64,000 bases of DNA from an uncultured Chloroflexia bacterium (GTDB lineage Bacteria; Chloroflexota; Limnocylindria; Limnocylindrales; CSP1-4): assembly GCA_963833225.1 (NCBI GenBank), contig CAWHXD010000019.1, positions 374,075-438,074 of the forward strand, written 5' to 3'. The position numbers were made by a program, and so were the translations under genes. The notes beneath the pieces were generated by a model. It was not told the DNA's origin, ran no database searches, and saw only the letters and a list, made by a program, of their open reading frames with translations. Positions 21,675-41,783 of this stretch are shown here, in pieces (positions within the stretch are counted from its first letter, which is position 1; each line of letters starts with the position of its first letter).

Positions 21675-21696
21675 TTGCTCGCTCGGCGTCCGGCCG

Positions 21697-24000
21697 TCAG
21701 ACCAGCGCCACGACGGCGGTGACGATGTCGCCCGAGTTGGGCAGGAACGCCTTCTCGAGGCGTTCCGCCTGGGGGCTGATCCCCGGTGCGGCGCCGATCC
21801 GGCCCACCGGGGCGTCGAGATCGTCGAACGCCTCGGCCTGGATGCGGGCCACGATCTCGTTCACGAACGAGCCGGTGAGCACCGCCTGTGCGGCGACCAC
21901 GCAGCGTCCGGTCTTGCGCACGGACGCGAGGATCGTGTCCATGTCCAGCGGGACGAGGCTGCGGACGTCGATCACCTCGGCCTGGATCCCGCGCGATACC
22001 GCGAGCACGTCGGCAGCGGCCAGGGCGTCCGGGACCGCCGGCCCCCAGGCCACGATCGTGGCATCGCCGCCCTGCCGGACGACGTTCGCCTTGCCGATCG
22101 GCGTGGTGTAGTCGCCCTCGGGCACCACGCCCTTGGTGGAATACAGGCCCTGGCTCTCCACGAACACCACCGGGTTGTTGGTCTGGATCGCGCTCCGCAG
22201 CAGGCCCTTGGCGTCCGCGGCCGTGGCCGGGTAGACGACCCACAAGCCGGGGATGTGGGTGAACAGCGACTCCAGGCTCTGGCTGTGCTGGCCGCCGTAG
22301 CCCTTGCCGGCCCCCACCGAGCACCGGATCACGATCGGCACCTCGACCTGGCCGCCGGACATGTAGTGCCACTTCGCGGCCTGGTTGGCGATCTGGTCGG
22401 ACGACATCAGCGCGAAGTCCATGTACATCAGCTCGACCACCGGTCGCAGGCCCACGATGCCCGCCCCGACCGCGGTGCCGCAGATCGTCGCCTCGGAGAT
22501 CGGCGTGTTGAACACGCGGTCGCGCCCGAAGGTCTCGATCAGGCCCTTGGTCATCTTGAACGCTCCGCCATAGTCGGCCACGTCCTCGCCGTAGAAGATG
22601 ACCCGCCGGTCGCGGCGCATCTCCTCGACCAGCGCGTCGCGGATGGCATCGCGGTACAGGATCCGGCCCTCCGCATCGACCTTGCTCACCGGGGCGTCCG
22701 CGAGCAGCGCGGGCTTCGCATCTGCGGCCGGAACCTCCTCGGACGTGCCGTCGGTGTAGAGCAGGTCAAGCAGGCTGGACGGATCGGGGTCCGTGGCCGC
22801 CGCGGCGCGCTTCGCTGCCCGGGCGTTGCGCTCGGCCGCTCCCGCAAGCACAGCGGCCACCTCGTCGTCGGTGGCAAGCCCGGTTTCGACGAGTTGGCCC
22901 TTGAGCTGCTCGATCGGGTCGACGGCCTTCCACGCGGCCTCCTCGTCGCGCGTCCGGTACTCGTTGCGCGGGTCGGACAGCGAATGGCCGTAGTAGCGGT
23001 AGGTGGAGGCCTCGATGAGGACGGGCCCGTCTCCGGCGCGGCACAGCGCCGCGGCCCGCGTGACGGCGTCGCGGACGGCCAGCACGTCCATGCCGTTGAC
23101 CACCTCGGCGTGCATGTTGTCCGTCGCGAACCCGGCCGCGCGGCGCGCCAGGTGCTTGATGCCCATGACCTCGTCGTCGGTCCGGTGGGTCATGCCGTAG
23201 TGGTTGTTCTGGATGAAGAAGATGATCGGCAGCCCGTACGGCCGATCGCCCGCCAGGTGGTTCGTCCACTGGTGCTGGGCCGCCCAGTTGAGCAATTCCA
23301 GGACCACGCCGTTCGCGTACGCGCCGTCGCCGGCGAAGCAGCACACGACCCCGTCGGTCTGCTCGTAGCGGTGGGCCATCGCCGCGCCTGTCGCGATCGG
23401 CACCGAGCCACCGACGATCGCGTTGGCGCCCAGGTTGCCCGTGGAGAAGTCGCCGATGTGCATGCCGCCCCCGCGGCCGCGGGAGTAGCCCTCGTCCTTG
23501 CCGAACAGCTCGGCGATCACCTTGTAGACGTGCTCCTCGAGGGCCGCGTCCAGGAGCTCGTCGCGGGTGCCGTCCTCGCGGCCCATCCGCGCGCGCAGCT
23601 GCTCGAGCGTCATCTGGCGCAGCGCCGAGAAGCCCTTGGCGATCGCGTCGCCGTGCCCGCGGTGTGACGAGGTGACGTTGTCCGTGATCCGGAGCACGGA
23701 CGAGGCGCCCACCGCCGACGCCTCCTGCCCGATGGAGACGTGCGTGGGACCCCGGTAGTCGTAGCCGGGCAGGGGTTCGTAGCCGCCGCCGGAGCGGAGA
23801 CGGACGATCATCTCCTCCATCTCGCGGATCGCGAGCATGTCGTCCAGGATGCCCAGCGCCTTCGCCTTGTCCAGCGACCCAGCCTTCACCTCGGAGGCGA
23901 GATCGCCCGCGTACTGGAAGCCCGTGATGGACCCCAGCTCCTCCTCGAACGGCGCGAAGTCGGGGCGGGTGTCGCTGTGGTAGACGGTCTCGGTGCTCAT
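21697..24000 (-). CDS. fused E1 alpha-beta component of a thiamine-diphosphate-dependent 2-oxoacid/acetoin-type dehydrogenase
   Basis: N-terminal half carries the TPP motif (FAGDGAYANG...FFIQNNHYGM). C-terminal half is E1-beta-like (ILYRDAIRDAL...FNTPISEATICG...transketolase C-terminal-like). ATG 24000 follows AGGAGA. 767 aa. Confidence 0.85.
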   Translation of the reverse strand: MSTETVYHSDTRPDFAPFEEELGSITGFQYAGDLASEVKAGSLDKAKALGILDDMLAIREMEEMIVRLRSGGGYEPLPGYDYRGPTHVSIGQEASAVGASSVLRITDNVTSSHRGHGDAIAKGFSALRQMTLEQLRARMGREDGTRDELLDAALEEHVYKVIAELFGKDEGYSRGRGGGMHIGDFSTGNLGANAIVGGSVPIATGAAMAHRYEQTDGVVCCFAGDGAYANGVVLELLNWAAQHQWTNHLAGDRPYGLPIIFFIQNNHYGMTHRTDDEVMGIKHLARRAAGFATDNMHAEVVNGMDVLAVRDAVTRAAALCRAGDGPVLIEASTYRYYGHSLSDPRNEYRTRDEEAAWKAVDPIEQLKGQLVETGLATDDEVAAVLAGAAERNARAAKRAAAATDPDPSSLLDLLYTDGTSEEVPAADAKPALLADAPVSKVDAEGRILYRDAIRDALVEEMRRDRRVIFYGEDVADYGGAFKMTKGLIETFGRDRVFNTPISEATICGTAVGAGIVGLRPVVELMYMDFALMSSDQIANQAAKWHYMSGGQVEVPIVIRCSVGAGKGYGGQHSQSLESLFTHIPGLWVVYPATAADAKGLLRSAIQTNNPVVFVESQGLYSTKGVVPEGDYTTPIGKANVVRQGGDATIVAWGPAVPDALAAADVLAVSRGIQAEVIDVRSLVPLDMDTILASVRKTGRCVVAAQAVLTGSFVNEIVARIQAEAFDDLDAPVGRIGAAPGISPQAERLEKAFLPNSGDIVTAVVALV

Positions 24001-24028
24001 CGGGTCTCCTGGGTTTCGGCGGATCGGG

Positions 24029-25021
24029 TCAGGGTTGCGGGGTGGCGACCAGGAGGCGGGCCGCCTCCTCGTCGGTGACCAGGCGGTGGACGAGGCCGCT
24101 GCGGAGGGCGGCCCGGATGGCAGGCACCTTGTCGGCCCCGCCGGCGATGGCGATGACATCCGGCACCCGCCGGAACTGGTCCTCGCGGACGGCGATGCAC
24201 CGCTCCGGCAGGCCGGCGGCGCGGACCTCGCGGCCCTCCGCGTCGAGGACGATCGAAGCGATGTCGGCAACGCCACCCGCCTCGTCAACGGCACGCGCGT
24301 CGGTCTCGGTGAGCGCCGCGCGGATCGTGGATGCACCCGGGCCCCATGCGCCGATGCCGACGACCGCACGCGTCAGTCGATCGAACTGGCTCAGCGTCGC
24401 CGAGGCCATCGGGTCGCTCGCGAGGGCGTCCGCCATCTCGGCGCTGCCCACCAGGAGCGGCACGTGGAGCGGGAAGACCGGGCCTGTCGCGCGTTCGGCC
24501 AGACGGCGCACGAGCTCGAGCGAGTTCAGCTCAAGCTGCAGCGTGGGGACGCTGCCCACGAGCTGCACGACGGTGCAGGCGGGGAGCCGGGGGAGCTGCT
24601 CGACCAGGGCGTGCAGCGTCCTGCCCCACGAGATGCCGAGCACGTCGGCGGCCTCGAGGACATCGCCCAGGACGGCGGCGGCCGCCCGCCCGAGCCCCGC
24701 GAGGCGCATCGCCTCCGTCCCGGTCGAGGAGCGGACCACCACGGCCCCGCGGATCCGGTAGCGGTCCCGGAGCGCGTCGGCGAGCTCCAGATCCAGCTCC
24801 GGAAGCGGCGCGATGTCAATCCGGACGATGCCGTCCCGACGGGCCCGGTCCAGCATCCGGGCAACCCTGAAGCGCGACACGCCCAGCTCGGCGGCGATCT
24901 CGCTCTTGCTGGCGCCGTCGAGGTAGTAGCGGCGGCAGGCCAGCACCGTGCTCAGGAGGTGCAGCCGGGATGCGGACGCGTCGCGATCGAGGACCACGCG
25001 AGTAGCGTATGACCTGATCAT
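24029..25021 (-). CDS. SorC/DeoR(Bsu)/CggR family sugar-binding transcriptional regulator
   Basis: HTH (SKSEIAAELGVSRFRVARMLDRARRDGIVRI) followed by a sugar-phosphate-binding domain (ISWGRTL...VVQLVGS...VVGIGAW...AGGADK). The true start is possibly a downstream GTG near 24994. Confidence 0.8.
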   Translation of the reverse strand: MIRSYATRVVLDRDASASRLHLLSTVLACRRYYLDGASKSEIAAELGVSRFRVARMLDRARRDGIVRIDIAPLPELDLELADALRDRYRIRGAVVVRSSTGTEAMRLAGLGRAAAAVLGDVLEAADVLGISWGRTLHALVEQLPRLPACTVVQLVGSVPTLQLELNSLELVRRLAERATGPVFPLHVPLLVGSAEMADALASDPMASATLSQFDRLTRAVVGIGAWGPGASTIRAALTETDARAVDEAGGVADIASIVLDAEGREVRAAGLPERCIAVREDQFRRVPDVIAIAGGADKVPAIRAALRSGLVHRLVTDEEAARLLVATPQP

Positions 25022-25052
25022 TCGAGCGTCAACCGCTCAAATGATCAGGTCA
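25010..25052. promoter_or_regulatory. perfect 13-bp inverted repeat TGACCTGATCATT-N17-AATGATCAGGTCA at the sorC 5' end
   Basis: Read directly. AT-rich relative to its surroundings. Overlaps the annotated start and upstream region of the SorC-family gene, so it is a candidate operator. Confidence 0.5.
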
Positions 25053-25443
25053 GGCAAGGAGCTGGCCGCCGATCAGCCGGCGGCAAGCGACTGGCCGCCC
25101 CCCCAAGCCTGCGGGCGGTTGAACGGTGCGGTCCCGGCACCGGTCGGCCGTCCGGCGCCCGGATCAGGCCCTGGCCCGTCGCCGCACCGCACAGATGGAC
25201 CGCCCGGCGGCAGGAGGCGAACGTGGCTGCACCGTAGGACCGCTGAGCTGCAGATGCGCGACGGTCATCCGATCCTGTCAGCACCGGATGGCATGGGGAC
25301 ACCCAGCGGCGCAGTCGTCGCAGGGTGCGACCGTCGGGTCACGGAGCGGCCGGGCACATCGTCGGCCACTCCCATCCGCGCGGCCGGACTCCAATCGCCG
25401 TGCCGTCGTTGGCCCCGCCACCTCGAGGCGGCAGGGCATCGGG

Positions 25444-26268
25444 TCAGACCAGGTCGGTTTCGATCCCGAAGGCGTCCTTGACCGAGCGGAGCTCATCGTC
25501 GGTCAGGCGCTGGCCGCGACCGCCGGCGACGAGGTCCAGGTACTCGTAGCGGGCCCCGGCCTCCGCGTACTCGATCCGGTCGACCGCGCGGGTGACGCTG
25601 ATGTCGCTGCGGGCCATGACCCCGTGCTTGGACCAGACGTCGATGCGGTGCGTCCTCAGGCTTCCCACGTTGGCGGCCATCATTGCGTCCGACCCGGGGA
25701 GCATGAACGGCAGGATGCCGATGCCCCGCGGGAGCTGGACGATGGTCTCCGGCTCCCAGCGCATGACCCTGGCGTTGAAGTAGGCCTCGTCGCTGTATTC
25801 GGGGATGTGCGACAGGTAGGTCAGGTGCGGCGGCTGGGCGTGGACGACCGCATGGAAGTTCGTGCCGGTGCGTGCGACGGTGTCGTCGTGGACGGCGAGG
25901 TGCGAGTTCCACTCCGAGGTGAGCTTCTCGAACAGCCGCCCCGGGGAAGTCCACAGCGTCGCTGTCACGCCGTCGGCTTCGATGACGACCGCTCCCACGC
26001 TGTTGACCGGCGTGACCGCCAGGTCCCGGAGGCGCCGGCCGGATCCCGTGACGATGACGGTGTGGCCGGCCAGGCGCGCGGCCGGGAGCGGCAGTGCGAT
26101 GGACTCGCGGTTCGGGAAGCGCCGCCGGACCTCGATCGGCCAGCCGATGCAGATCGAGATGTTGCCGGCGGCCCCTTCGCCCGCGTCGATCGCGGCCACG
26201 CGGCGGCCGCCCTCGCCCATCGAGGCCAGGAGCTCGTCGAGCTCGGGGAACGGCTCGTTCAGCGCCAT
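25444..26268 (-). CDS. rhaD: rhamnulose-1-phosphate aldolase (class II aldolase/adducin family)
   Basis: 274 aa, the same length as E. coli RhaD. Colinear motifs: GGNISI, VIVTGSG, HxxxH region (FHAVVHAQPPH), GIGILPFMLPGS. ATG 26268 follows GGGAGGA. Confidence 0.8.
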   Translation of the reverse strand: MALNEPFPELDELLASMGEGGRRVAAIDAGEGAAGNISICIGWPIEVRRRFPNRESIALPLPAARLAGHTVIVTGSGRRLRDLAVTPVNSVGAVVIEADGVTATLWTSPGRLFEKLTSEWNSHLAVHDDTVARTGTNFHAVVHAQPPHLTYLSHIPEYSDEAYFNARVMRWEPETIVQLPRGIGILPFMLPGSDAMMAANVGSLRTHRIDVWSKHGVMARSDISVTRAVDRIEYAEAGARYEYLDLVAGGRGQRLTDDELRSVKDAFGIETDLV

Positions 26269-26278
26269 CGAGTCCTCC

Positions 26279-27496
26279 CTACCAACTCGCGGCCGTGCCG
26301 CCCACCCGCGCCGCGTACTTCGCCTCCTCCTCACCCGACGCGAGGTAGGCGCGGTAGGGGTCGGGCGCGAGCCCGCGCGCGACCCGCAGCTCGGCGAGGA
26401 GCGGCCGGACGTCGGTGTTGAACGCATCCCACAGGCAGCCGTTCGCCTCCAGCACGTCGCCCGCCGCCTGCGCCGCCACCAGCCGCTCGCGGTCCACCAG
26501 CAGCACCTTGGCGATCGTCTCCTGGAGGTTCATGACGCTCCGGATCATGGCCGGCACCTTGGGCTCGATGTTGTGGCACTGGTCGAGCATGTAGGTGGTC
26601 TGGTTGGCGGTCTCCTGAGCGATCGGATCGGCGTCGTCGCGCATCGCGTTGACCAGCTCGTGGGCGATCCGGAAGAGCTGGTATGGGTCGATGGAGCCGA
26701 CCATGAGATCGTCGTCGCCGTACTTCTTGTCGTTGAGGTCGAAGGCGGCCAGCTTCCCCTCGGCGAGGAGCAGGGCCACGATCTGCTCGATGTTGACGCC
26801 CATCGCGTGGTGTCCGGTGTCGACGCACACGCCGGCGCGATCGCCCAGCTGGCGCACGACGTTGAGGCTCTGTCCCCAGTCCTGGACGTCGGTGCTGTAC
26901 AGCGCGGGCTCGTAGAGCTTGTACTCGAGGTACAGGCGGGCGTTCGCGGGCAGCGCGGCGTAGACCTCCCGCAGCCCGGCGACCAGCCGTCGGTGCCGTC
27001 CGCGCAGGTCGTCCTGGCCCGGGTAGTTGGTGCCGTCGCCCAGCCAGACCTTGACCGCCTGGGCATCGGTCGCGGCGGCGATCTCGCAGCAGCCCACGAT
27101 GGCCGCGACGGCCTTGGCGCGGACACGGGCGTCGGGATGACAGATCGACCCGAGCTTGTAGTCCTCGTCTTGGAAGGTGTTGCTGTTGATGCCGCCGAGG
27201 ACGAGCCCGCGCCCCTTCGTGTAGGCCGCGAGCCCCGCCCAGTCATCGACCATGTCCCAGGGGATGTGGAGGCTCACGCTGCCCGCGATCCCCGTGTAGC
27301 GGTTGACGGTCGCCGCGTCGTCGATCTTCTCGAACACCGTGCGCGGCACCCCCTGCTGGGGGAACACGCGGAACCGGGTCCCGGTATTGACGAAGCCCCA
27401 CGACGGAATCTCGATGTTGACGCCGTTCATGGCCCAGTCGATGCGCTCGATGGCCGGGGCGGACGCGGGCTTGGCGATGGCGGCGATGGTGGCCAT
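26279..27496 (-). CDS. rhaI: L-rhamnose isomerase (xylose-isomerase-like TIM barrel; actinobacterial/Pseudomonas stutzeri type)
   Basis: 405 aa with IEIPSWGFVNTGTRF, LHIPWD, CVDTGHH, FDLNDKKYGDDDL. Located between the kinase and the aldolase. Confidence 0.8.
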   Translation of the reverse strand: MATIAAIAKPASAPAIERIDWAMNGVNIEIPSWGFVNTGTRFRVFPQQGVPRTVFEKIDDAATVNRYTGIAGSVSLHIPWDMVDDWAGLAAYTKGRGLVLGGINSNTFQDEDYKLGSICHPDARVRAKAVAAIVGCCEIAAATDAQAVKVWLGDGTNYPGQDDLRGRHRRLVAGLREVYAALPANARLYLEYKLYEPALYSTDVQDWGQSLNVVRQLGDRAGVCVDTGHHAMGVNIEQIVALLLAEGKLAAFDLNDKKYGDDDLMVGSIDPYQLFRIAHELVNAMRDDADPIAQETANQTTYMLDQCHNIEPKVPAMIRSVMNLQETIAKVLLVDRERLVAAQAAGDVLEANGCLWDAFNTDVRPLLAELRVARGLAPDPYRAYLASGEEEAKYAARVGGTAASW

Positions 27497-27513
27497 GGCG
27501 GTCTCCTTGGGGC

Positions 27514-29007
27514 TCAGGCGGAGGTGGCGGGCCGGCGGGCGCAGATCGCGGCGAACCGCGCGCGCGCCTCGGTCCAGTCACCGGACGGTTCATAGGTGGT
27601 GATCGGGAAGGAGCGGGCCGCCAGCTCGCGTGCCTCGGCGACCGAGGCGAGCTCGCCCGACGCGATGGCCTGGACGGCGAGGTTGCCAATGGCCGTTGCC
27701 TCGACGGGGCCGGCTCGCACCGGGAGCCCGGTGGCGCCGGCGGTCAGGCGGTTGAGGAGGCGGTTCCTGCAGCCACCGCCCACGATGTGCACGGCATCGA
27801 TCGGCTGGTCTGACGCGGCGGCAAGCTGGTCGATCGCCGCGGCATAGCGCAGCGCCAGGCTCTCCAGCAGGACGCGCATCAGCGTGCCGGTGTCGCGCGG
27901 CACGGGCTGATCGGTCTCGGCGCAGAACTCGCGGACGCGAGCCGGGAGGTCGCCCGGGCGCAGGAAGCGCTCGTCGTCGGGATCGATGAACGCGGTGAAC
28001 GCCGGCGCGGCCTCGGCGAGGCCGGCCAGCTTCTCGTAGGTCGGTGCCTCGCGATCCGGCCACAGGGCGCGCCGGCTCTCCTGGACCAGCCACAGGCCAA
28101 CCACGTTGCGCAGCAGCCGGATCGTGCCGACCACGCCACCCTCGTTGGTCAGGTTCGCGGCGAGGGACACGTCGGAGATCACCGGCTCCGGCATCTCCAA
28201 CCCGATCAGCGACCAGGTGCCCGAGGAGAGGAAGGCGGTGGATCGGGATCCGATCGGGGTGCCGACAACGGCCGAGGCCGTGTCGTGCGAACCGGGGAGC
28301 ACCACCCGCGTGAGGGCGAGCCCGGACGCGCTCGCGAGCCCGTCCATCAGGCCGCCCACGTCCGTGCCGGGCGGAACGATCTCCGGCAACAGCCGGGTCG
28401 GGATGCCAAGGCGCTCCAGCATGGGTCGAGCCCAGTCGCGGGCCCGGGCGTCGAGCGCCTGGCTGGTGGATGCGAGCGTGTACTCGGACACGCTGGCGCC
28501 CGACAGGAAGTGGGCGAACAGGTCGGCCATCATCAGCAGCCGGTCCGCGTGCCGCAGGAGCGGGTCGTCCGCGCTCGCCATGGACAGCAGCTGGTACACG
28601 GTGTTGATGGCCATGAACTGGATGCCCGTGACGGCGTAGATCTCGTCCCGCGGGACCAGCCCGAACGCCCGCTCAAGCATGCCGTCGGTCCGTGCGTCAC
28701 GGTAGTGGACGGGGTTCGCGAGCAGTCGCCCCCGCTCGTCGAGGAGCGCGAAGTCCACGCCCCAGGTGTCGACGGCGACGGAGGCCACATCGCCTGCCGC
28801 GCCGGCCTTGCGCAGGCCGGTCCCGATGTCGCCGAACAGGCGCAGGGCGTCCCAGTGGAGCGTCCCCGCCACGGCCACGGGCACGTTCGGGAACCGGTGG
28901 ATGTCCTCGATCGCAAGCCGCTCGCCGTCGAAGGTGCCGACGAGGACTCGACCGCTTTCGGCACCCAGGTCGACGGCCGCGAGCCGGACGTTGGCGCGCT
29001 CAGTCAA
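27514..29007 (-). CDS. rhaB: rhamnulokinase (FGGY carbohydrate kinase family)
   Basis: LAAVDLGAESGRV...HRFPN...TLHWD...SVAVDTWGVDFALLD...GSHDTASAV...IVGGG is typical RhaB. Confidence 0.88.
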   Translation of the reverse strand: MTERANVRLAAVDLGAESGRVLVGTFDGERLAIEDIHRFPNVPVAVAGTLHWDALRLFGDIGTGLRKAGAAGDVASVAVDTWGVDFALLDERGRLLANPVHYRDARTDGMLERAFGLVPRDEIYAVTGIQFMAINTVYQLLSMASADDPLLRHADRLLMMADLFAHFLSGASVSEYTLASTSQALDARARDWARPMLERLGIPTRLLPEIVPPGTDVGGLMDGLASASGLALTRVVLPGSHDTASAVVGTPIGSRSTAFLSSGTWSLIGLEMPEPVISDVSLAANLTNEGGVVGTIRLLRNVVGLWLVQESRRALWPDREAPTYEKLAGLAEAAPAFTAFIDPDDERFLRPGDLPARVREFCAETDQPVPRDTGTLMRVLLESLALRYAAAIDQLAAASDQPIDAVHIVGGGCRNRLLNRLTAGATGLPVRAGPVEATAIGNLAVQAIASGELASVAEARELAARSFPITTYEPSGDWTEARARFAAICARRPATSA

Positions 29008-29314
29008 GGCGGAACACCTCCTCCAGGCGCCGGTGGAACCCCGTGGCCGGGTCGGTGCACGGGTCGATGAGGCGGGCCATGTCCGCCTGCCAGAGGTCGT
29101 TGACCGGCTGCTCGGCCATGAACGCCCGGAACCGGTCGAAGTCCTCGACGTCGAACACGCCGATCAGTGTCCCGTCGAGCAGGTAGATGGAGTAGTTGCT
29201 GACCCCGCCGTCCCGGAGGGCCCCGAGCATCTCGGGCCAGACGTCGGCGTGGCGCCGGCGGTACTCGTCCTCGGCGCCGGGCAGCAGGCGCATGGTGAAG
29301 GCGATGCGTTCCAT
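29000..29314 (-). CDS. rhaM: L-rhamnose mutarotase
   Basis: 104 aa: MERIAFTMRLLPGAEDEYRRRHADVWPEMLGALRDGGVSNYSIY (RhaM/YiiL family). Overlaps the rhaB start by 8 nt. Confidence 0.88.
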   Translation of the reverse strand: MERIAFTMRLLPGAEDEYRRRHADVWPEMLGALRDGGVSNYSIYLLDGTLIGVFDVEDFDRFRAFMAEQPVNDLWQADMARLIDPCTDPATGFHRRLEEVFRLD

Positions 29315-29340
29315 CGATGGTGGCTCCCGGGATGGGAAAC

Positions 29341-29369
29341 GGGCCCCGGCGGAGGATCCGCCGGGGCCC
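29341..29369 (-). promoter_or_regulatory. perfect 12-bp-stem hairpin GGGCCCCGGCGG-aggat-CCGCCGGGGCCC between the SBP gene and rhaM
   Basis: Read directly. It is intercistronic, 12 nt after the SBP stop and 27 nt before the rhaM start. A near-identical stem core occurs at 45664-45696. Confidence 0.5.
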
Positions 29370-29380
29370 GGCTGGAGGAG

Positions 29381-30489
29381 CTAGAAGTCGAACTGGTCGA
29401 CGTTCGTCGCGTCGAACCGGAAAGCCGGCCCGAGGATGACGACGCTGTCCGCACCGATCGTGTACGGCTGGCCGTTGTTGAGACTCGGCACGGTGAAGGT
29501 CTCGCCCTCAGCGCCCGTGATCTCGCCCTTGACCAGCTTGTCGGCGATGACGTAGGAGAGGTAGCCGAGGTCCGGGAACACTCCACAGGCCGAAGACCGG
29601 GGAGGTGCCGTCCTTGACGAACGGCCTTCATGTCGTTGGGGAAGCCGAGGCCGGTGACCTTGACGGAGTCCGACTTGCCGGCCTGCGAGACGACCTGTGC
29701 CGCCGCGAGGATGCCGACCGTGGTCGGGGCGACGATGACCTTGAGGTTCGGGTACTTGGTCAGCAGAGTCTGCGCCTGCTGGGTGCTCTTGGTCGCGTCG
29801 TCATCGCCGTAGACGGTGTCGACGAGCTTGAGCCCCGCGTACTTGGTCGTCCTTGAGGGTCGTCTTCATGAGGTCGATCCAGGCGTTCTGGTTGGTGGCC
29901 GTGGCGGCCGCCGACAGGATCGCGATCTCGCCGGTGCAATTCGGCGCGAGCTCGCACGCCCAGTCGGCGAGGTTGACGCCGACGCCGCTGAAGTCAACCT
30001 GGTTGACGAACACGTTGTAGGCGCCGACCGCGGGGCTGGAGTCAAAGCCGACAACCTTGATGCCCGCTGCCATGGCCTCCTTGAGCGCCGGGGCGACCTC
30101 GTCCTTGCCGTCAGCGGAGATGATGATCGCGCTGACGTTCTGGGTGGTGAGGTCCGTGATGAACGGGATCTGGAGGTCGGCCTTCGCCTCGTTGGGCCCG
30201 ACCTGGATGACGGTCCCGCCGAGCTCGCCGGCAGCCTTGTCGACGCCCGTCTTCGCGGCGGCGAAGTACTGGTTGACGATGTCCTTGGGCAGGTAGCCGA
30301 CGGTCATGGACCGGGCGCCATGGACGCGGGCGCCATGGACCGGGCGCCATGGACTCGGGCGCCATGGACTCGGGCGCCTGGGCTGGCGGGGGCGGCGGAC
30401 GGGCTGGCGGCGCCGTTGCCGCAGGCCGACAGCACGATGACGGCCGTGCCTGCGATGGCGAGCCACCGTCCGGCTGAATGGAGCTTCAA
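29381..30489 (-). pseudogene. rhamnose-type sugar ABC transporter substrate-binding lipoprotein (RhaSTPQ-type), at least 4 frameshifts
   Basis: TTG 30489 follows GGAGGA. Lipoprotein signal KLHSAGRWLAIAGTAVIVLSAC. The mature domain (VGYLPKDIVNQYFAAAKTG...) is in another frame. Further frame changes occur near 29843-29850 (LKDD|KYAGLKLVDTVYGDDD), 29619-29626 (NDMKA|FVKDGTSPVFGLW) and 29578-29588 (|VFPDLGYLSYVIADK...FDF*). Confidence 0.8.
30306..30378. repeat. tandem repeat, 5 units of 15/14 bp (ATGGAC[T/C/G]CGGGCGCC), inside the SBP lipoprotein linker
   Basis: Units lie at 30306-19 (14), 30320-34 (15), 30335-48 (14), 30349-63 (15) and 30364-78 (15). They encode GARVH pentapeptide repeats in the signal-peptide frame. 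Confidence 0.9.
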
Positions 30490-30527
30490 GGGAGTTCCTC
30501 CTCTATGTCGATTACTGGCGCGCGTTC

Positions 30528-31564
30528 TCACCCGGGAATCGCGTCGGCCGGCTGGTGCCGGCGCCTCTGGACGCGTTCATGGCCGTTCTGGCCTTGGTGA
30601 GCGAAGGTTGGGATGAGGACGGACAGGATCAGCAGCAACCCCAGGGCGATGCTCTGGACCTCGACCGACACGCTGGCGAGCCGGAGGGCGTTCTGCATCA
30701 CGGCGATCGTGAGCACGGCCAGGACCGTGCCCGGGATCGTGCCCGAACCTCCGAAGATATTGGCGCCGCCCGAGCAGCACGACCGTCGACGGCCGTGATC
30801 GTCATCCCCTCGCCGGCATCGGCGCGGGCGCTCGAGAGACGGGATGTCAGCACGACGCCCGCGAAGGCGGCGATGGTGCCCGTGAGGACGAACAGGCTGG
30901 TGCGGAGACGGGTCACCCGGACGCCCGAGTAGCGAGCCGTCCCCGCGTTCCGGCCAATGGCGTAGATCTGGCGCCCGATCCACGTCCGGTGGAGCACGAT
31001 GCCGAGCGCCAGCGCGAGGCCGAGGAAGATGACGAACGACCATGGGATCACCGTGCCGGGAACGTCGCCGAACCCGAGCTGGGTGAAGGCCTCCGGGAAG
31101 TTGCTGACACCGCGCGGCCCAAGGACGATGAGCGCCATCCCGCGGAACAGGGCCAGCGTGCCGAGCGTGACCACGAGCGACGGCAGGCCGCCGCGGCCGA
31201 CGAGGACGCCGTTGAGGAAGCCGCCGGCGGCGCCGATGAGCGAGCACGAGCGGGATGGCGATCTCGAGGGGCACGCCGGCCGCCCACAGGAAGCCAAGGG
31301 TTGCGCTGGCGAGCCCGGCCATCGACTCCACCGACAGGTCGATCTCGCCGAGGATGATGACCAGGGTCAGCGGCAGGGCCATGATCGCCACCTCCATGAG
31401 GGCGGCGACCAGGTTCGAGAAGTTCTTGGCGGTCAGGAAGTACGGGGAGAGGGCGTTGCCCATCACACCAGCCCCAGCAGGGCGACCAGGAGCAGCGTCT
31501 CCCATCGGGCCAGCCCCCGAAGCACGGAGCCGATCACCGGCCGGGACCGCGCCGGCGCCGTCAT
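30528..31564 (-). pseudogene. sugar ABC transporter permease (RhaQ-like), at least 4 frameshifts
   Basis: ATG 31564 overlaps the upstream stop (ATGA). Good sequence alternates between frames: MTAPARSRPVIGSVLRGLARWETLLLVALLGLV | VMGNALSPYFLTAKNF...IAIPLVLA | LIGAAGGFLNGVLVG...GEGMTITAV | VVLLG | GANIFGGSGTIPGTVLAVLTIAVMQNALRL... Switch sites are near 31465, 31238-46, 30791-801 and 30776-83. Confidence 0.8.
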
Positions 31565-32580
31565 CGGGCGCCACTCCGGGTGTTCGCGCGCTGGACGCCA
31601 CGACGGATGAGCTGGTCGCTGCTGATCGCCAGCAGGATGACAACGCCGTAGATCGCCTGGAGCCAGAACTGCGACAGGCCGACGAGGATCAGCGCATTCG
31701 CGATGAACCCGAGGAACAGGGCGCCGATCGCCGCGCCGGCGAGCGTGCCCGAGCCGCCGAGGATGTTCACCCCGCCGACCACGACCGCGGCGATGACCGC
31801 GAGGACCACGCCCGTTGCCGCTGTGCCGTTGATGGTGCCGAACTCGATCACCCACATCACGCCCGCCAGGCCCGCGAGGATGCCGCACACGGCATAGGCG
31901 ACGAAGATGACCCGGCGGGACGGGATGCCCAGGATCGCGGCCGCATCAGGGTTGCTGCCGACGGCGTAGACCTGGCGGCCGAAGCGGGTCGAGCGCAGGA
32001 GCACGGAGCCCACGACGACCACCCCGATCGTGACGCAGGACGAACACGGGGATGCCGAGGAAGTCGGTGCGGGCGATGTGGGCGAACCCCTCGGGAAGGC
32101 AGGCGAGCGGGACCTGGTCGGGACCGGCGATCACGTAGTCGATCCCGCGGAAGATGCTGAGCGTTCCCAGGGTGGCCACGATCGCGCGGCACCTTGAGCA
32201 TCGCGATGATGAACCCGTTGACCATCCCGAGCACAAGGCCGATGGCGAGCCCCAGCACGAGCGCACCGAGCCGGGTCGACGGTCTCCAGCTCGAGCGAGC
32301 GGGCGACGGCGTAGGCAACCAGCCCGATGATCGCCTCGACCGACAGGTCGATGCCCCGGGTGATGATGACGAGCGCCTCGCCGACAGCGGCGATCGCCGT
32401 GATCGACGCGAGGACCGCGACCTGGCTGAAGTTGTCGACGGACAGGAACTGCGGGGCCATGGTCGTGACCAGGCCGCCGAGCACGAACATGAGCGCGACC
32501 AGGGTCAGCTCGCGCTGGCGTCCGATCACCAGCAGCCAGTGGCCGCGGCCCCGCCGCACCGGGAGCGTCGCTTCAGCCAT
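31561..32580 (-). pseudogene. sugar ABC transporter permease (RhaP-like), at least 3 frameshifts
   Basis: Segments MAEATLPV...ITRGIDLSVEAIIGLVAYAVA | GALVLGLAIGLVLGMVNGFIIAMLKVP | AIVATLGTLSIFRGIDYVIAGPDQ...GIPVFV | TIGVVVVGSVLLRSTRFGRQVYAVGSN...GGVNILGGSGT... lie in four frames. Switch sites are near 32270-300, 32184-90 and 32030-37. Confidence 0.8.
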
Positions 32581-34070
32581 GGGATCGCCTGGGTGCCGGT
32601 GGCCGCGAACATCACGCGCTCCTGGGTGGCCTCATCCCTCGAGATCTCGGCCGTGACCCGGCCCTCGTGGAGGACGATGATCCGGTCGGACATCGCCAGC
32701 ACCTCGGGCAGATCGCTCGAGATCAGGATGATCGCCAGGCCCTTCGCGGCCAGCTCGGCGATCAACCGGTGCACCTCGACCTTGGCTCCGATGTCGATGC
32801 CCCGCGTCGGCTCGTCGAGGATCAGGACCCGCGGGCCGGACGCCAGCCACTTGGCCAGCACGACCTTCTGCTGGTTGCCGCCCGACAGGGCGCCCACCTG
32901 TTGGTCGACGCCGGTCATCCGTACGTCGAACTGCTCGGTGTGCTCGGCTGCCACGGCTCGCTCCTTCGCCTCGTGCACCAGGAGCCTGGGGAACAGGCGG
33001 GGCAGGATGGGCAGCGTGACGTTGTGGGCAATGGAGAAGTCGAGGATCAGGCCCTGCTGGTGGCGGTCCTCGGGCAGATAGGCGATGCCCGCGCTCATCG
33101 CCCCGGACGGCGCGCCGAAGTCCACGGGTGTTCCGTCCAGCCGCACGTCTCCGCTGTCCCGCCGGTCGATCCCGAACAGCACCCGAGCGATCTCGGACCG
33201 GCCGGCCCCGACGAGGCCCGCGAGCCCGACGATCTCCCCGGCCCGCACCGAGAACGAGACATCGCGGAACACACCGACCCGCGTCAGGTTGGAGACCTCG
33301 AGCAGCACATCGCCGATCGGGTTCTCGACCTTTGGAAACAGGGACACGGTCCGGCCGACCATGTGGCGGATGAGGTCGGCGGTCGTGAGCTCCGATGTCG
33401 GCGCGGTGACGACATGACGGCCATCACGGAAGACCGTCGCCCGGTCACTCAGGTCGAACACCTCGTCCAGGCGGTGGCTCACGAACAGGATGGCCACGCC
33501 CCGGTCCCGCAGCCGGCGGACGATGGTGAACAGCCGCTCGACTTCGTGGGCCGAGAGCGAGGCCGTGGGTTCATCAAGGATGAGCACGTTGGCCTCGACC
33601 GACAGGGCCTTGGCGATCTCGATCAGCTGCTGGTCGGCCATCGACAGGCCACGAACCGGTGCGCCGACGTTGACCTGCACGTCCAGCTCTTCAAACAGCG
33701 TCTCCGCCGACCGCCGCATGCCGCGCCAGTCGATCAACCCGAGGTGGCCAGACGGCGCGTGACCGATGAACACGTTCTCGGCGACCGTGAGGTCCGGGAA
33801 CAGGCGTGGCTCCTGGTGGACGACCGCGATCCCCAGCGCGCGCGACCGGGATGGCCCGGCGATCTGGGTTGGCACGCCGTCCAGCAGGATCGTGCCGCTG
33901 TCCGGCTGGTGGACCCCGGCCAGGATCTTGACAAGGGTGCTCTTGCCGGCACCGTTCTCGCCGACGAGCGCGTGCACCTCGCCCGCCAGGATGTCGAGCG
34001 AGACATCGCTCAGCGCCGCGGTCGCCCCAAAGCGCTTGGAGATCCCGGACAGGGCGACGCGCGGCGTCAT
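32526..34070 (-). CDS. sugar ABC transporter ATP-binding protein (duplicated ATPase, RhaT/RbsA-like)
   Basis: Two ABC cassettes (GENGAGKST...LSMADQQLIEIAKAL...LILDEPT and GLVGAGRSE...LSGGNQQKVVLAKWL...LILDEPTRGID). The ATG 34070 overlaps the deoR stop (ATGA). The last ~18 codons overlap the permease start and look non-native. Confidence 0.88.
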   Translation of the reverse strand: MTPRVALSGISKRFGATAALSDVSLDILAGEVHALVGENGAGKSTLVKILAGVHQPDSGTILLDGVPTQIAGPSRSRALGIAVVHQEPRLFPDLTVAENVFIGHAPSGHLGLIDWRGMRRSAETLFEELDVQVNVGAPVRGLSMADQQLIEIAKALSVEANVLILDEPTASLSAHEVERLFTIVRRLRDRGVAILFVSHRLDEVFDLSDRATVFRDGRHVVTAPTSELTTADLIRHMVGRTVSLFPKVENPIGDVLLEVSNLTRVGVFRDVSFSVRAGEIVGLAGLVGAGRSEIARVLFGIDRRDSGDVRLDGTPVDFGAPSGAMSAGIAYLPEDRHQQGLILDFSIAHNVTLPILPRLFPRLLVHEAKERAVAAEHTEQFDVRMTGVDQQVGALSGGNQQKVVLAKWLASGPRVLILDEPTRGIDIGAKVEVHRLIAELAAKGLAIILISSDLPEVLAMSDRIIVLHEGRVTAEISRDEATQERVMFAATGTQAIPWLKRRSRCGGAAATGCW

Positions 34071-34891
34071 CCGGCGGCCCCGGCGTCGACGCGCATGACG
34101 GTCACGCCAAGCCTCTCGAGGGCGGTGACCATGTCGGCGGGCGCCTGCTGGTCCGTGATGATGCCGGTCAGCCGGTCCGCGCGGCAGAACGTCGCCGACG
34201 CCGTGCGCCCGAACTTGGTGTGGTCCACGACCGCATAGACCTCGCGCGCCGCCGCGACCATCGAGCGCTTGATCTGGGCCTCCTCCTCCATCGCGTCGGT
34301 GAGGCCGGCCTCCATCGTGAGGCCCACGGCCCCCACGAATGCCTTCTGGACGTTGACCCGGCGGAAGACGCCATCGCCCAGCGGCCCAACGACCGAGAGC
34401 GCCTCGGAGCGGACGCGGCCGCCCAGCATCAGGACCGTGATCCCGGGGTGGCCCGCGAGCTCCAGCGCGATCCGGATGCTGTTGGTCACCACCGTGAGCT
34501 GATGCCAGGTCGTGCGCTCCTTGAGGTGGCGGGCGACGTAGAGCGCCGTGGTGCTCGCGTCGAACACGATGCTCTCGCCGTCCGCGATGAGGGCGGCGGC
34601 GGCCGAGCCGATCTGCCACTTCTCGTCGCGCTGGCGTCGTTCGCGGACCTCGAACGCGGGCTCCGGACGGTCGGAGGCACGGGGGGCGATCGCGCCACCG
34701 TGGGTCCGCATGACGCGCGCCTCGCCCTCGAGCACGAGGAGGTCCTTGCGGATCGTGACCGGCGACACGCCGAACTGGACGGCCAGCTCCGCGACCCGCA
34801 CACGGCCGGCGTTGGCGACCATCTCCGCGATCTGCTCCTGGCGCTCCGGGGCGAACACGGCCTCGGGCGTGGTACCGGGCTTCACAGCCAC
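34067..34891 (-). CDS. DeoR/GlpR family transcriptional regulator
   Basis: PERQEQIAEMVANAGRVRVAELAVQFGVSPVTIRKDLLVLEGE HTH plus a DeoR C-terminal sensor domain (IVFDASTTALYVARHL...VVTNSI...GAVGL...). GTG start at 34891/34885 lies after GGAG. Confidence 0.85.
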   Translation of the reverse strand: MAVKPGTTPEAVFAPERQEQIAEMVANAGRVRVAELAVQFGVSPVTIRKDLLVLEGEARVMRTHGGAIAPRASDRPEPAFEVRERRQRDEKWQIGSAAAALIADGESIVFDASTTALYVARHLKERTTWHQLTVVTNSIRIALELAGHPGITVLMLGGRVRSEALSVVGPLGDGVFRRVNVQKAFVGAVGLTMEAGLTDAMEEEAQIKRSMVAAAREVYAVVDHTKFGRTASATFCRADRLTGIITDQQAPADMVTALERLGVTVMRVDAGAAG

Positions 34892-35104
34892 AAGGTTCGA
34901 CTCCAAGCGAAACGGGGAAGGTCGATTTCGAAACTTCGGTTGGTTGCGAATAGGAGCACTTTGCGACGGCGAGCGGGCTCTGTCAAGCGCAATCGCGCCA
35001 GAGATGCCTGGCCTGGGTTGAGTTGGCGCCGTCGGTCGCGTACGATGCGGTATCACAACCAATCGGAATGAGTCGTAACTACTCGGAGAGCAGGCGAACC
35101 GCAG

Positions 35105-36331
35105 ATGCAGACGGCTCGCAGCATGGAGGACCCGGTGCACGCGGGACTGCCCATCGTCAACACCCACGTGCACCTGGCGCCCAACTTCTCGGCGTTCGAG
35201 ACGCCCGAGGACGCTGTCGCGGCGGCGCAGGCAGAGGGCGTCCGGGTATTCGGCGCGTCGAACTTCCACGACCACCGGGTCTATGCGCGCTTCGCGCAGG
35301 CGGCCGAGGGAGCCGGAATCCTGCCGCTGTTCGGGGTCGAGTTCATCACGGTGGTCGAGGACCTGCGCGCCGCGGACATCCGGGTGAACGACCCCGCGAA
35401 CCCAGGGCGCATGTACCTCTGCGGCAAGGGCGTCGACCCGTTCCGGGACCCCGGGCCGGAGGCCGGCCGGATCGCGGACGCGGCTCGCGTCGCGAACGAG
35501 TCGCGCGCGCGAGCGATGGCACGCCTCCTGCGCGATCACTTCGCGGCGGCCGGGCTGGCCACGTCGCTCGACGATCGGGCGATCGTCGCGGACATCGCGG
35601 AACGGGCCCGCGTCCCCGAGGCCTGGGTGGTGCTCCAGGAGCGCCATCTCGCCATGGCGTTCCAGGAGGCCCTGTTCCTGCAGGTCCCTCCGGCCCGTCG
35701 GGCCGACCTGCTGGCCCGCGCGTACGGCCGGGTGCCCGCTGCCCCCGTCGAGGACAATGTCGCGGTGCAGGGTGAGATCCGGTCCCGGTTGCTGAAGGCT
35801 GGCTGCCCGGCATTCGTGCCCGAGACGGCGCTCGGATTCGATGACGCCGTGCGACTGGTCCTGGCCCTCGACGGCATCCCCGCCTACCCGACGCTCGCCG
35901 ACGGCGCGCAACCGGTCTGCCCGTTCGAGGCGTCACCGGACGAGCTGGCGACCGAGCTGAAGGCGCGCGGCCTGCACCTGGCCGAGCTCATCCCCGGGCG
36001 CAACGAGCCAGGGACCGTCGACGCCTACGTGACGGCCTTTCGCGCCGCCGGGATCGCGGTCACCGCGGGAACCGAGCACAACACCCCGGAGCGAATCCCG
36101 TTCGCGCCGGCCGGCAAGGGCGGGCGGCCCCTGTCGCCGGTGGCCCGATCCGCGTTCTTCGAGGGCGCGTGCGTGGTCGTGGCCCATCAGCAGCGGCGCC
36201 AAACGGGGCTCGGCGGGTTCGTCGGCGCCGACGGCATCCCGGCGCCCGGTTTCGCGGACGACGACGCGCGCATCCGCTGGTTCGCGGCACTCGGTGCCCA
36301 GGTGATCGCGGGCGAAGGGGGCGTCGCATGA
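35105..36331 (+). CDS. hypothetical metal-dependent phosphoesterase-like protein (tentatively PHP-domain-like)
   Basis: N-terminal NTHVHLAPNFSAF and C-terminal AGTEHNT resemble PHP-family metal-ligand motifs. The stop overlaps the next gene's ATG (ATGA at 36328-31). The family call is tentative. Confidence 0.45.
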   Translation: MQTARSMEDPVHAGLPIVNTHVHLAPNFSAFETPEDAVAAAQAEGVRVFGASNFHDHRVYARFAQAAEGAGILPLFGVEFITVVEDLRAADIRVNDPANPGRMYLCGKGVDPFRDPGPEAGRIADAARVANESRARAMARLLRDHFAAAGLATSLDDRAIVADIAERARVPEAWVVLQERHLAMAFQEALFLQVPPARRADLLARAYGRVPAAPVEDNVAVQGEIRSRLLKAGCPAFVPETALGFDDAVRLVLALDGIPAYPTLADGAQPVCPFEASPDELATELKARGLHLAELIPGRNEPGTVDAYVTAFRAAGIAVTAGTEHNTPERIPFAPAGKGGRPLSPVARSAFFEGACVVVAHQQRRQTGLGGFVGADGIPAPGFADDDARIRWFAALGAQVIAGEGGVA

Positions 36332-38364
36332 CCACCACGATCGACCCGCCGGCGGCCGACGACCCCGTCATCGGGGAGTTGATCGCGCTCGCCCACCGGT
36401 TCGGGCTGGACCCGGAGTTCTCGCGCGGCGGTGGCGGGAACGCCTCGGCAAAGGCGGATGGCGTGCTGTGGATCAAGCCAAGCGGGGTTCCGCTCGCCAC
36501 GCTCGAGACGGCCGATCTCGTGCCGCTCGATCGTGCGAGCCTGCTCGCGACGCTGGACGCCCCGGTGGCGCCGCGGGCCGACGTCGGCGATCCGGTGATG
36601 CGCGCGGCCGAGCAGGCCCGACTGGGCCCCGCCGGCGGGCGCCGGCCCTCGGTGGAGCTCCTGTTCCACGCGCTGATGCCCGAGCGGTTCGTCCTGCATA
36701 CCCACCCGATCGTGATCAACGCGGTCACCTGCAACGAGGATGGCGAGGCGATCGCCCGCCGCCTGTTCGGCGACGACGTCCTGTGGGTGCCGTACAGGGA
36801 TCCGGGGCTGCCGCTGGCGCACGCCATCCGGGACGCCCGGGACGCCCACGTCCTGCGGACCGGCGGGCCTGTCCCCCGGATCACGCTGATGCAGAATCAC
36901 GGGCTGATCGTCGCGGCCGACTCAGTTGCGGACATCGACGCGGCATCGCGGCGGCTGGTCGAGGTCATCGCGGGTGCCGTCGATCACGCCATCGAGAGGA
37001 CGGCCGCCCCCGCCTTCACGCCGCCACTGCCGGCACCCGCCGACGCGCTGGTCCAGGCGCTTGCGCCAACGCTGCGGGCCCTGCTGTCGCCGGCCTCGCG
37101 GCGGGTCGTGATCTTCGACGGGATCCCGTCCGCCGCGGCGTTCACCGCGACGGCGGCCGGGCGTGCGTTCGTGCAGGGTGGCCCGCTCACGCCCGACCAG
37201 ATCGTGTACGCCGGGGCCCAGCCGCTGTTGCTCGACCTCGACGACGTGCCGCCGGACTCGGCGGCGGACATCGGGGCCGGCGCCCTTGCGCGCCATGCGG
37301 CGGACGGGCTCGACGCCCCGCTCGTCGTGGTGGTGCCCGGCGTCGGGCTGTTCGCGGTCGGTGACACCTGGGCCGCCGCGGACACCGCGCGCCACATCTA
37401 CCTCGATGCCCTGCGGGTGGGCGAGGCCGCCAACCGGATCGGGCGAGTGCGCCACCTGGCACCGGCGGAACGCCAGTTCATCGAGGACTGGGAGGCCGAG
37501 GCATACCGCAAGCAGGTCGCCGCCGGCGACGCGGGCCCAGGTCGCGCGGCCGGCCGGATCGCCCTCGTCACCGGGGCCGCGCAGGGCTTTGGCCTCGCGA
37601 TCGCCGAGGATCTCGTCGCCAACGGCGCCCACGTCGTCCTCGCCGATCTCAACGTCCCGCTCGCGGAGGCCAACGCGGCGGCCCTCGTGGACCGCTTCGG
37701 CCCCGGGCGGGCGATGGCGATCGCGATGGACGTCACCGACGAGGCGAGCGTCGCCGCCGGCATCGCGGCCACGGTGCGAGCGTATGGCGGCCTTGACCTC
37801 CTCGTGTCCAACGCGGGCGTGCTGCGGGCCAGCGGGGTCACGGCCCAGCCGCTGGCCGACTTTGACCTCGTGACCCGGGTCAACTACCGCGGCTACTTCC
37901 TCGCGGTCAAGCACGCCGCCCCGGTCATGGCCGCGCAGCACCGCGCCAACCCCGACTGGTGGGGCGACATCATCGAGATCAACTCCAAGTCCGGCCTCGT
38001 GGGCTCGTCGCGCAACAGCGCCTACGCGGGCTCCAAGTTCGGCGGCATCGGTCTCACCCAGTCGTTCGCCCTCGAGCTGGTCAGCGACGGGATCAAGGTC
38101 AACGCCATCTGCCCTGGCAACTTCCTCGATGGACCGCTGTGGTCGGACCCGGACAACGGCCTGTTCGTGCAGTACCTGCGCGAGGGCAAGGTGCCGGGCG
38201 CGACGACGATCGACGACGTGCGCCGCGCCTACGAGGCCAAGGTCCCGATGGGCCGCGGCTGTACCCCGGCCGACGTGATGGAGGCCCTCTACTATCTCGT
38301 GGCCCAGGAATACGAGACGGGCCAGGCGCTGCCGGTGACCGGTGGCCAGGTGATGCTGAGCTGA
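36328..38364 (+). CDS. rhaEW: bifunctional rhamnulose-1-phosphate aldolase / short-chain (lactaldehyde) dehydrogenase
   Basis: 678 aa. N-terminal class II aldolase domain (GGGGNASAK...IKPSGVPL...HTHP). C-terminal SDR (VTGAAQGFG...NAG...YAGSKFG). Confidence 0.85.
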   Translation: MTTTIDPPAADDPVIGELIALAHRFGLDPEFSRGGGGNASAKADGVLWIKPSGVPLATLETADLVPLDRASLLATLDAPVAPRADVGDPVMRAAEQARLGPAGGRRPSVELLFHALMPERFVLHTHPIVINAVTCNEDGEAIARRLFGDDVLWVPYRDPGLPLAHAIRDARDAHVLRTGGPVPRITLMQNHGLIVAADSVADIDAASRRLVEVIAGAVDHAIERTAAPAFTPPLPAPADALVQALAPTLRALLSPASRRVVIFDGIPSAAAFTATAAGRAFVQGGPLTPDQIVYAGAQPLLLDLDDVPPDSAADIGAGALARHAADGLDAPLVVVVPGVGLFAVGDTWAAADTARHIYLDALRVGEAANRIGRVRHLAPAERQFIEDWEAEAYRKQVAAGDAGPGRAAGRIALVTGAAQGFGLAIAEDLVANGAHVVLADLNVPLAEANAAALVDRFGPGRAMAIAMDVTDEASVAAGIAATVRAYGGLDLLVSNAGVLRASGVTAQPLADFDLVTRVNYRGYFLAVKHAAPVMAAQHRANPDWWGDIIEINSKSGLVGSSRNSAYAGSKFGGIGLTQSFALELVSDGIKVNAICPGNFLDGPLWSDPDNGLFVQYLREGKVPGATTIDDVRRAYEAKVPMGRGCTPADVMEALYYLVAQEYETGQALPVTGGQVMLS

Positions 38365-41089: not shown

Positions 41090-41338
41090 CGCGGGCGGTC
41101 AACGCGGGTGCCGCGAGAGGGCGCACGCGGGGTCGCGAGACGGGCGCCCGCCGGCGGGGTGGCCACGACCACCGCGATCCCGGCGCCCACCGCCCAGGTG
41201 GCCAACACCGCCGCGGCATCCGGTCGACGCGGATCACCACCAGCGCCCTGACCGCTCCGCGCCTCCTCCGCCGACCAGTCGCGGTCGTGGCGGGTCCGCG
41301 GTCGTGGCGGTCGTCAAGGCAGTGCTCGCGTTGCACCT

Positions 41339-41512
41339 TGATCAGCAGCCCTGATCAGCGGCGGGTTTCTCCGGACACTGTTGGCCGGACAGGCCGGGAT
41401 CCCTGCCCGGAGATCAGGGTTCCTGATTCTCTTGGCGACTTCCGCGTGTGCTCGGACATCGGCGCCCCGCCGGAACGTCGGGAAGCCGCCGTTGATCATG
41501 GGTCGTGATCAA
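41339..41512. repeat. cluster of TGATCA palindromes, including inverted repeat TTGATCA-N7-TGATCAA (41492-41512)
   Basis: TGATCA occurs at 41339, 41352, 41493 and 41506, plus an imperfect inverted repeat GAGATCAGG/CCTGATTCTC at 41410-41431. All lie in a 770-bp non-coding gap. Confidence 0.6.
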
Positions 41513-41635
41513 GCGGCGCGGAGCAGTGCCGTAGGCAACCCCACCGCGAGGCGAGGGACGGCCCAGGGGCAGGCCTGCCTCCTCGGGCACGAGGGGGCTG
41601 AGCAGGACGTCGTGGTGCCGGCCGCACCACGGACA

Positions 41636-41710
41636 CCGTCCCCTCCTGGGACTCGGACCCCCGTCCCCTCCAGGGACTCGGACGCCCGTCCCTCCCGTGT
41701 CCGGGCCGGC
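41636..41710. repeat. 25-bp tandem repeat, 2 good units plus 1 degenerate (CCGTCCCCTCC[T/A]GGGACTCGGAC[C/G]C)
   Basis: Read directly. Each unit contains a small GTCCC...GGGAC hairpin. Confidence 0.8.
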
Positions 41711-41771
41711 TGCGTGACGGGCGCAGAATCGTCGTGCACAGACCTTGAGGGGTGCGGTACCGTTCGGTGGT

Positions 41772-41783
41772 GTTACCGGTAAC
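41772..41783. promoter_or_regulatory. perfect 12-bp palindrome GTTACCGGTAAC, candidate LacI-family operator
   Basis: Read directly, 76 nt upstream of the LacI-family ATG (41859). It has the central-CG symmetry typical of LacI/GalR operators. Confidence 0.5.

Follow-up and report, generated by a model that had tools for sequence, protein, structure and literature searches.

Introduction

Disordered N-terminal tethers are known in bacterial lipoproteins, the linkers of E. coli outer-membrane lipoproteins being one example (El Rayes et al., bioRxiv 10.1101/2021.01.05.425367). For metagenome-assembled genomes (MAGs), indel and frameshift errors are known to persist in Nanopore bins below ~40-fold coverage (Sereika et al. 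2022, PMC9262707), and the MFD MAGs derive from Nanopore reads alone, with Flye as the assembler and a single round of Medaka for polishing (PMC12313526). The subject of this report is a tandem repeat within the gene for a rhamnose-binding lipoprotein of an ATP-binding cassette (ABC) transporter. The gene lies in a 64,000-nucleotide stretch of contig CAWHXD010000019.1 (assembly GCA_963833225.1, uncultured Chloroflexia bacterium), hereafter the window, from the first letter of which positions are counted. An earlier note on this DNA proposed that the repeat breaks the reading frame of the gene and might switch its expression on and off. Comparison of assemblies leads us instead to regard the frameshifts in the window as probable consensus errors of a poorly polished long-read assembly (probability roughly 0.8).

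The repeat tract and its reading frame

The elements that concern us, in gene orientation, are as follows.

29381-30489, minus strand: gene for a RhaS-type ABC-transporter substrate-binding lipoprotein (PF13407), identified from tblastn frames, the indel list, Pfam and TIGR02637
30421-30489, minus strand: lipoprotein signal peptide, MKLHSAGRWLAIAGTAVIVLSA and then the lipobox C, read from the sequence and conserved in orthologues
30379-30392, minus strand: net gain of 1 nt relative to orthologous loci L001, L019 and L002, just upstream of unit 1, in a stretch that includes a C5 run
30306-30378, minus strand: tandem repeat of five units (15, 15, 14, 15 and 14 nt), from Tandem Repeats Finder, unit coordinates and orthologue alignments
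30364-30378, minus strand: unit 1, GGCGCCCGAGTCCAT
30349-30363, minus strand: unit 2, GGCGCCCGAGTCCAT again
30335-30348, minus strand: unit 3, GGCGCCCGGTCCAT, 14 nt, with a base missing between CCCG and GTCC (~30341) that is A in orthologues
30320-30334, minus strand: unit 4, GGCGCCCGCGTCCAT
30306-30319, minus strand: unit 5, GGCGCCCGGTCCAT, 14 nt, lacking the same position as unit 3 (~30312)

The tract holds the top tandem-repeat scores of the window. Tandem Repeats Finder reports a period of 15 at 30305-30378 (5.1 copies, 95% matches, score 121) and, in the same tract, a higher-order period of 29 nt (score 132). The earlier note was correct in describing five head-to-tail units after the lipobox Cys, two of them 14 nt long; it also placed an NcoI site in each unit, but the five units hold four such sites (30318, 30333, 30347 and 30362). 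The Cys codon (30421-30423) is separated from the tract by 42 nt (14 codons), the context being ...VLSAC followed by GNGAASPSAAPASP, and unit 5 abuts TVGYLPKD, where conservation in the mature domain begins. No further exact copies of the repeat are found within the 64-kb window, and matches with one or two mismatches occur at about chance level.

When orthologous substrate-binding protein genes were compared, as the earlier note had suggested, the intact ones proved to have the 15-nt repeat too, in the corresponding position. In the closest of these (L001, L019, L002 and L003) the unit number is the same, about 5-6, and the repeat is always in frame. The tract of protein P0001 (L001) and of L019 reads ...SAAPES MAPES MAPES MAPES MAPES MAPAAV TVGYLPKD, and that of P0005 (L002, L003) reads TAPET TAPQT TAPES TAPES TAPAAV. 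Since the intact orthologues all translate the tract as (M/T)APE(S/T), i.e. xAPES or ESMAP, the coding frame is not the GARVH frame that had been assigned to it. GARVH is the product of reading through from the signal peptide in the window as deposited; ESMAP/xAPES is what the orthologues use, as do all but one of the 26 other loci discussed below. Differences between orthologues of the GCG versus GCA kind are synonymous in the ESMAP frame only. The units are also homogenised within a lineage, being all GCG in the window and mostly GCA in L001 and L019, a pattern that shows ordinary concerted, in-frame turnover of units.

Three differences that alter the frame separate the window from L001, L019 and L002 within ~100 nt, namely the net +1 at 30379-30392, the -1 in unit 3 and the -1 in unit 5. 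As a result of the first, the tract is out of the ESMAP frame relative to the signal peptide from unit 1 on. When all three are repaired the translation becomes ...SAAPPAQAPES MAPES MAPxS MAPAS MAPxS MTVGY. The earlier note had located the first frameshift in unit 3. Adding one base there does join the frames of the signal peptide and the mature domain, as claimed, but the first break lies upstream in the net +1, and the frame opened by that single base is used by no orthologue.

A patch of single-nucleotide indels

The differences in the tract belong to a larger set:

29573-32585, minus strand: patch of 17 window-private 1-nt indels (13 insertions, 4 deletions), from three-way alignments and the frame track of a hidden Markov model (HMM)

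The patch spans permease 1 (~31579-32559), permease 2 (~30492-31564) and the binding-protein gene, which is interrupted by six frame-changing indels as deposited. No window-private indels are found in the aligned flanks 26200-29573 and 32585-34900 (~5.6 kb), which gives a P value for clustering of ~5e-10, and in a codon-usage HMM of the entire window dense frame switching is seen in this stretch only. The breaks associated with the repeat make up three of the 17 private indels, and the other 14 are unrelated to any repeat. The claim that the repeat breaks the reading frame thus holds insofar as the open reading frame (ORF) is broken at the tract, but the lesion is not peculiar to the repeat, being part of a series that extends over three genes. 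Window-private substitutions amount to 2.21% in the patch as against 2.18% in the flanks; their bias to third codon positions is kept, and more than 17 excess substitutions in the patch are excluded at 95%. The repaired binding protein fits every invariant column of the family alignment.

Private indels were called in an alignment of the window, L001 and L019 over window positions 21400-36980. The numbers of private 1-nt indels are 20 for the window, 19 for L001 and 13 for L019, at non-overlapping positions. In L001 (ENA ERZ25039500, contig_37247), 16 of them fall in ~2.8 kb, a region equivalent to window 34142-36931 that covers the DeoR regulator and aldolase/dehydrogenase genes; such dense patches therefore recur in these assemblies. 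The 13 in L019 are scattered. Gene calls are fragmented in both L001 and L019, and both are long-read assemblies with "contig_N" names, a form of naming shared by the MFD MAGs, which account for 13 of the 15 genome loci at which the tract was found (see below).

Over the three assemblies insertions outnumber deletions by 36 to 16, and 22 of the 36 insertions create a new CpG, by adding G after C or C before G, where ~9 would be expected (P ~5e-6). This excess looks like a systematic, technology-like error signature, for which the basecaller, the polisher or methylation are possible causes. Two specific causes of the indels were considered and rejected. One was a methylation motif, GANTC/GAGTC or GATC, common to all of them; the indel contexts have no motif in common, and the CpG excess is the one pattern they show. 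The other was mis-polishing through a paralogue, the two permeases cross-matching only weakly (30-48% identity).

The density of the patch, 17 indels in 3.0 kb (0.56%), is in our judgement at the level of raw reads and not of a polished consensus, which points to a stretch that escaped effective polishing. The frame breaks of the tract (+1 upstream, -1 in unit 3, -1 in unit 5) would then form part of a 3-kb under-polished long-read consensus, and the transporter of the organism itself would be intact.

Three observations weigh against consensus error. The limits of the patch roughly match three consecutive, linked genes, as they would following the loss of an uptake function. Both 14-nt units lack the same base in a tract with a 29-nt period, and a deletion followed by duplication of two units would give the same picture. 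Lastly, an intact ORF at another locus (L009, see below) uses the alternative RVHG frame, so that a real change of frame in a tether is not absurd.

The first two of these would also be accounted for had the strain lost rhamnose uptake, the two permease genes and the binding-protein gene being in decay and the repeat indels genuine, some having arisen by slippage or mis-repair. The indels of the patch do not extend beyond three genes of linked function, the ATPase, rhaM, kinase and isomerase genes being intact, and the identical 14-nt units are explicable as one deletion copied by a 29-nt duplication. In bacterial pseudogenes undergoing neutral decay, however, substitutions should exceed indels several-fold, and one would expect a bias towards deletions and some multi-base events. 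The deletion bias is reportedly that described by Mira, Ochman and Moran in 2001. The patch presents neither an excess of substitutions spread evenly over codon positions nor deletion-biased indels of mixed size. Its 17 indels come with fewer than 17 excess substitutions (at 95%) and with third-position bias preserved; every event is of 1 nt, and insertions (13) exceed deletions (4). Moreover, similar private indels, including another dense patch, are found elsewhere in the two closest long-read assemblies. We consider genuine pseudogenisation improbable.

The earlier note had also raised the possibility that replication slippage in the tract toggles expression, which would make it a phase-variable contingency locus controlling the binding protein. 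In favour of this is the presence, where signal peptide and mature domain meet, of a perfect tandem repeat whose length variants disrupt the frame. Nevertheless, the repeat lies inside the coding region and its unit is 15 nt long, so that, as the note itself recognized, gain or loss of a unit keeps the frame; phase variation is unsupported for this reason. The relatives (L001, L019, L002 and L003) vary by in-frame changes only and display no on and off states. The breaks in the window are 1-nt losses within units or changes in the flank, amid 14 indels that have nothing to do with the repeat, and the pattern with the 14-nt unit had no matches in Joint Genome Institute (JGI) metagenomes, where the 15-nt pattern yielded 11 loci. 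Nothing was found in support of a switch, which we hold to be extremely improbable.

One other interrupted gene and one candidate were noted outside the patch. The 2-oxoacid dehydrogenase E2 gene (20323-21664, minus strand) has a frameshift at ~21383, inside the Ala/Pro-rich linker between its domains, so that the lipoyl domain is not in the frame shared by the E3-binding and catalytic domains. The linker is GC-rich and of low complexity, and a further consensus error is the probable cause of the split. At 17034-18864 (minus strand) overlapping ORFs of 437 and 377 amino acids jointly span a single 609-residue gene of L002; neither matches a Pfam family, and the HMM frame track switches at ~18076, making ~18076-18167 a candidate frameshift region.

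The repeat as a lipoprotein tether

The exact two-unit DNA sequence was used as a pattern to scan GTDB species-representative genomes and JGI metagenome contigs. The former gave 15 loci, all in Chloroflexota MAGs, and the latter 11 (loci L004-L018 and L020-L030). Signal peptide and tract share a frame in 25 of the 26, the exception being L009. A lipobox Cys precedes the tract in 24; L021 has an ordinary signal peptide, and the contig of L020 stops before the signal peptide. The proteins that bear the tract are not orthologous, and include xylose-type and other sugar-binding proteins, BMP/PnrA-type proteins, amino-acid and polyamine binding proteins, and fasciclin-like proteins. Two tract loci each are present in MFD09779.bin.2.225 and MFD09964.bin.2.77, and La6_metabat2.260 has ESMAP on a xylose-type binding protein and TAPES on its rhamnose-binding protein. 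The earlier note had named wide occurrence as a generic element among the outcomes that would speak against its proposal, and at the level of the lineage this is what the other loci, at least 26 in number, reveal.

The occurrence of the unit on many unrelated lipoproteins of the lineage identifies the tract as a tether. By this reasoning it would be a lineage-typical, low-complexity link between the lipidated Cys and the folded domain, and not a switch. In the family alignment the region between the Cys and the invariant GYLPKDIVNQYF is 20-50 residues long, of variable length and rich in Ala, Pro, Ser, Thr and Glu. The flexible (x-Ala-Pro-Glu-Ser)n, equivalent to (ESMAP)n, probably allows the membrane-anchored binding protein to reach its permease, by analogy with known tethers. 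Units would be gained or lost in multiples of 15 nt, via slippage or recombination, and the frame would normally be kept. As a specific motif, (ESMAP)n may be new to the literature, although the feature is of a known kind.

One locus departs from this pattern. L009 (2549-2579, minus strand; contig_9341 of MFD09779.bin.2.225) encodes a BMP-type lipoprotein in an intact ORF, in which an (ESMAP)4 tract is read in the +1 frame (SRVDGSRVHGPRVHGPRVHGP). The tract has a surplus base on its upstream side and lacks a base on its downstream side, and the differences between its units are synonymous in the ESMAP frame only. Two errors that cancel by chance may account for the frame of L009, or else a true frame change, compensated and tolerated by the tether.

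This locus bears upon a different explanation of the window, that the lineage truly uses the GARVH frame by means of a compensated +1 upstream and -1 in the last unit, the base of unit 3 alone being an error or a recent lesion. One correction then suffices, and at the rate of the patch, which predicts ~0.5 errors per 100 nt, one error is more to be expected than three. A frame change should be tolerable in a disordered tether, and the L009 ORF does enter its tract by +1 and leave it by -1, reading SRVHGPRVHGP. Against this, the ESMAP frame is the one found in all intact orthologues and in every other locus of the scan, and variation within and between tracts is synonymous in that frame only. 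L009 is itself from a long-read MAG with more private 1-nt indels nearby (its relatives are only ~78% identical, making private indel calls there unreliable). An RVHG-type query matched nothing in 5.8 billion clusters, a weak result in that the expected positives, L009 and the window ORF, were missed as well. We find the GARVH frame distinctly unlikely and continue to treat the three frame changes at the tract as probable consensus errors.

A more far-reaching and rather doubtful suggestion is that the Met-rich (ESMAP)n might be a functional module in its own right, specific to Limnocylindria-like Chloroflexota, which lipoprotein genes of unrelated kinds exchange or keep homogenised. It is prompted by the near-identical 15-nt units in unrelated genes, the presence of two or more such genes in some genomes, and the concerted evolution of the units. 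A Met at every fifth residue could serve in scavenging oxidants or binding Cu(I), and the tether might be tolerant of a change in reading frame, as in L009. Codon bias, combined with a search designed for exact matches, could be enough to account for the sharing of units at the DNA level.

The rhamnose operon and other features of the window

The binding-protein gene begins with a TTG start codon (30487-30489), preceded by a ribosome-binding site, GAGGAGG, at 30497-30503, and ends with a stop codon at 29381-29383. The signal peptide has a positively charged n-region, a hydrophobic h-region and the lipobox L-S-A-C, conserved in all aligned orthologues, with the Cys at residue 23. The repaired protein matches PF13407 (Peripla_BP_4) with an E value of 7.8e-58 and covers the RhaS model TIGR02637 fully (1-302 of 302) with 325.6 bits, which does not reach the curated equivalog cut-off of 342.25. 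Its best database matches show 85-91% protein identity, and their sources label them as proteins of Chloroflexi or Candidatus Limnocylindrales MAGs; the intact P0001 of L001 is 90-91% identical.

The operon consists, in order, of genes for a DeoR regulator, an ABC ATPase, two permeases (BPD_transp_2), the binding protein, rhaM (PF05336), rhamnulokinase (FGGY) and an isomerase, an arrangement that is syntenic with L001, L002 and L019. The genes that border the patch are as follows.

32586-34058, minus strand: intact ABC ATPase gene directly upstream of the patch, with one tblastn match (residues 23-513, 88.6% identity) and no private indels
26279-29314, minus strand: intact downstream genes of the operon, namely rhaM (29000-29314), rhamnulokinase (27514-29007) and isomerase (26279-27496)

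Each of the three downstream genes gives one full-length tblastn match, and none has private coding indels.

A second rhaM (L-rhamnose mutarotase) homologue, 33% identical to the rhaM query from L002, is located at 45307-45651 (minus strand) beside other minus-strand genes, which suggests that there may be a second sugar-utilisation cluster. Finally, 721 nt at 41085-41805 are without coding signal according to the HMM and hold two tandem repeats, one at 41102-41151 (period 23, 2.2 copies) and one at 41636-41692 (Tandem Repeats Finder: period 25, 2.3 copies, 93% matches, score 100).

Implications and comparison with known systems

In practical terms, the apparent rhamnose-transporter pseudogenes and the "frameshift-prone repeat" of this window are best handled as assembly artefacts and not as gene loss or as a switch. 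Patches of this sort can be recognized by three signs taken jointly, i.e. private 1-nt indels, no excess of substitutions, and indels at other positions in sister assemblies. The recurrence of an (ESMAP)n tether on unrelated lipoproteins of an uncultured Chloroflexota lineage could help in the prediction of lipoproteins and in the trimming of tethers for expression. It also raises the small question of why the tether is rich in Met.

By comparison with RhaS (TIGR02637/PF13407), the window protein is alike in its full-length match to the model and in its rhamnose operon context, and differs in a score just below the cut-off and in the six indels of the deposited gene. Simple-sequence contingency loci resemble the tract in being tandem repeats situated towards the 5' end of genes whose products are exposed at the surface. 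Here, in contrast, the unit length is divisible by 3, copy number does not vary among relatives in a way that shifts the frame, and the lesions are not changes in unit number.

Like the errors of Nanopore-only MAGs (PMC9262707, PMC12313526), the indels of the window are of 1 nt, private to the assembly, and accompanied by fragmented gene calls. They differ in lying mostly outside homopolymers, in being biased to insertions and to CpG, and in being packed into a ~3-kb patch; the sequencing platform of the window is surmised from its relatives.

The closest likeness of the tract is with known lipoprotein tethers, those of Gram-positive substrate-binding lipoproteins and of E. coli outer-membrane lipoproteins, which occupy the same position between the lipidated Cys and the folded domain. 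The low-complexity composition, rich in Ala, Pro, Ser and Glu, the variation in length among orthologues, and the presence on many unrelated lipoproteins of one lineage are likewise shared. What sets the present tract apart is its near-perfect pentapeptide repeat, the near-identity of the 15-nt DNA unit across unrelated genes, and an unusual richness in Met, with one such residue in every five.

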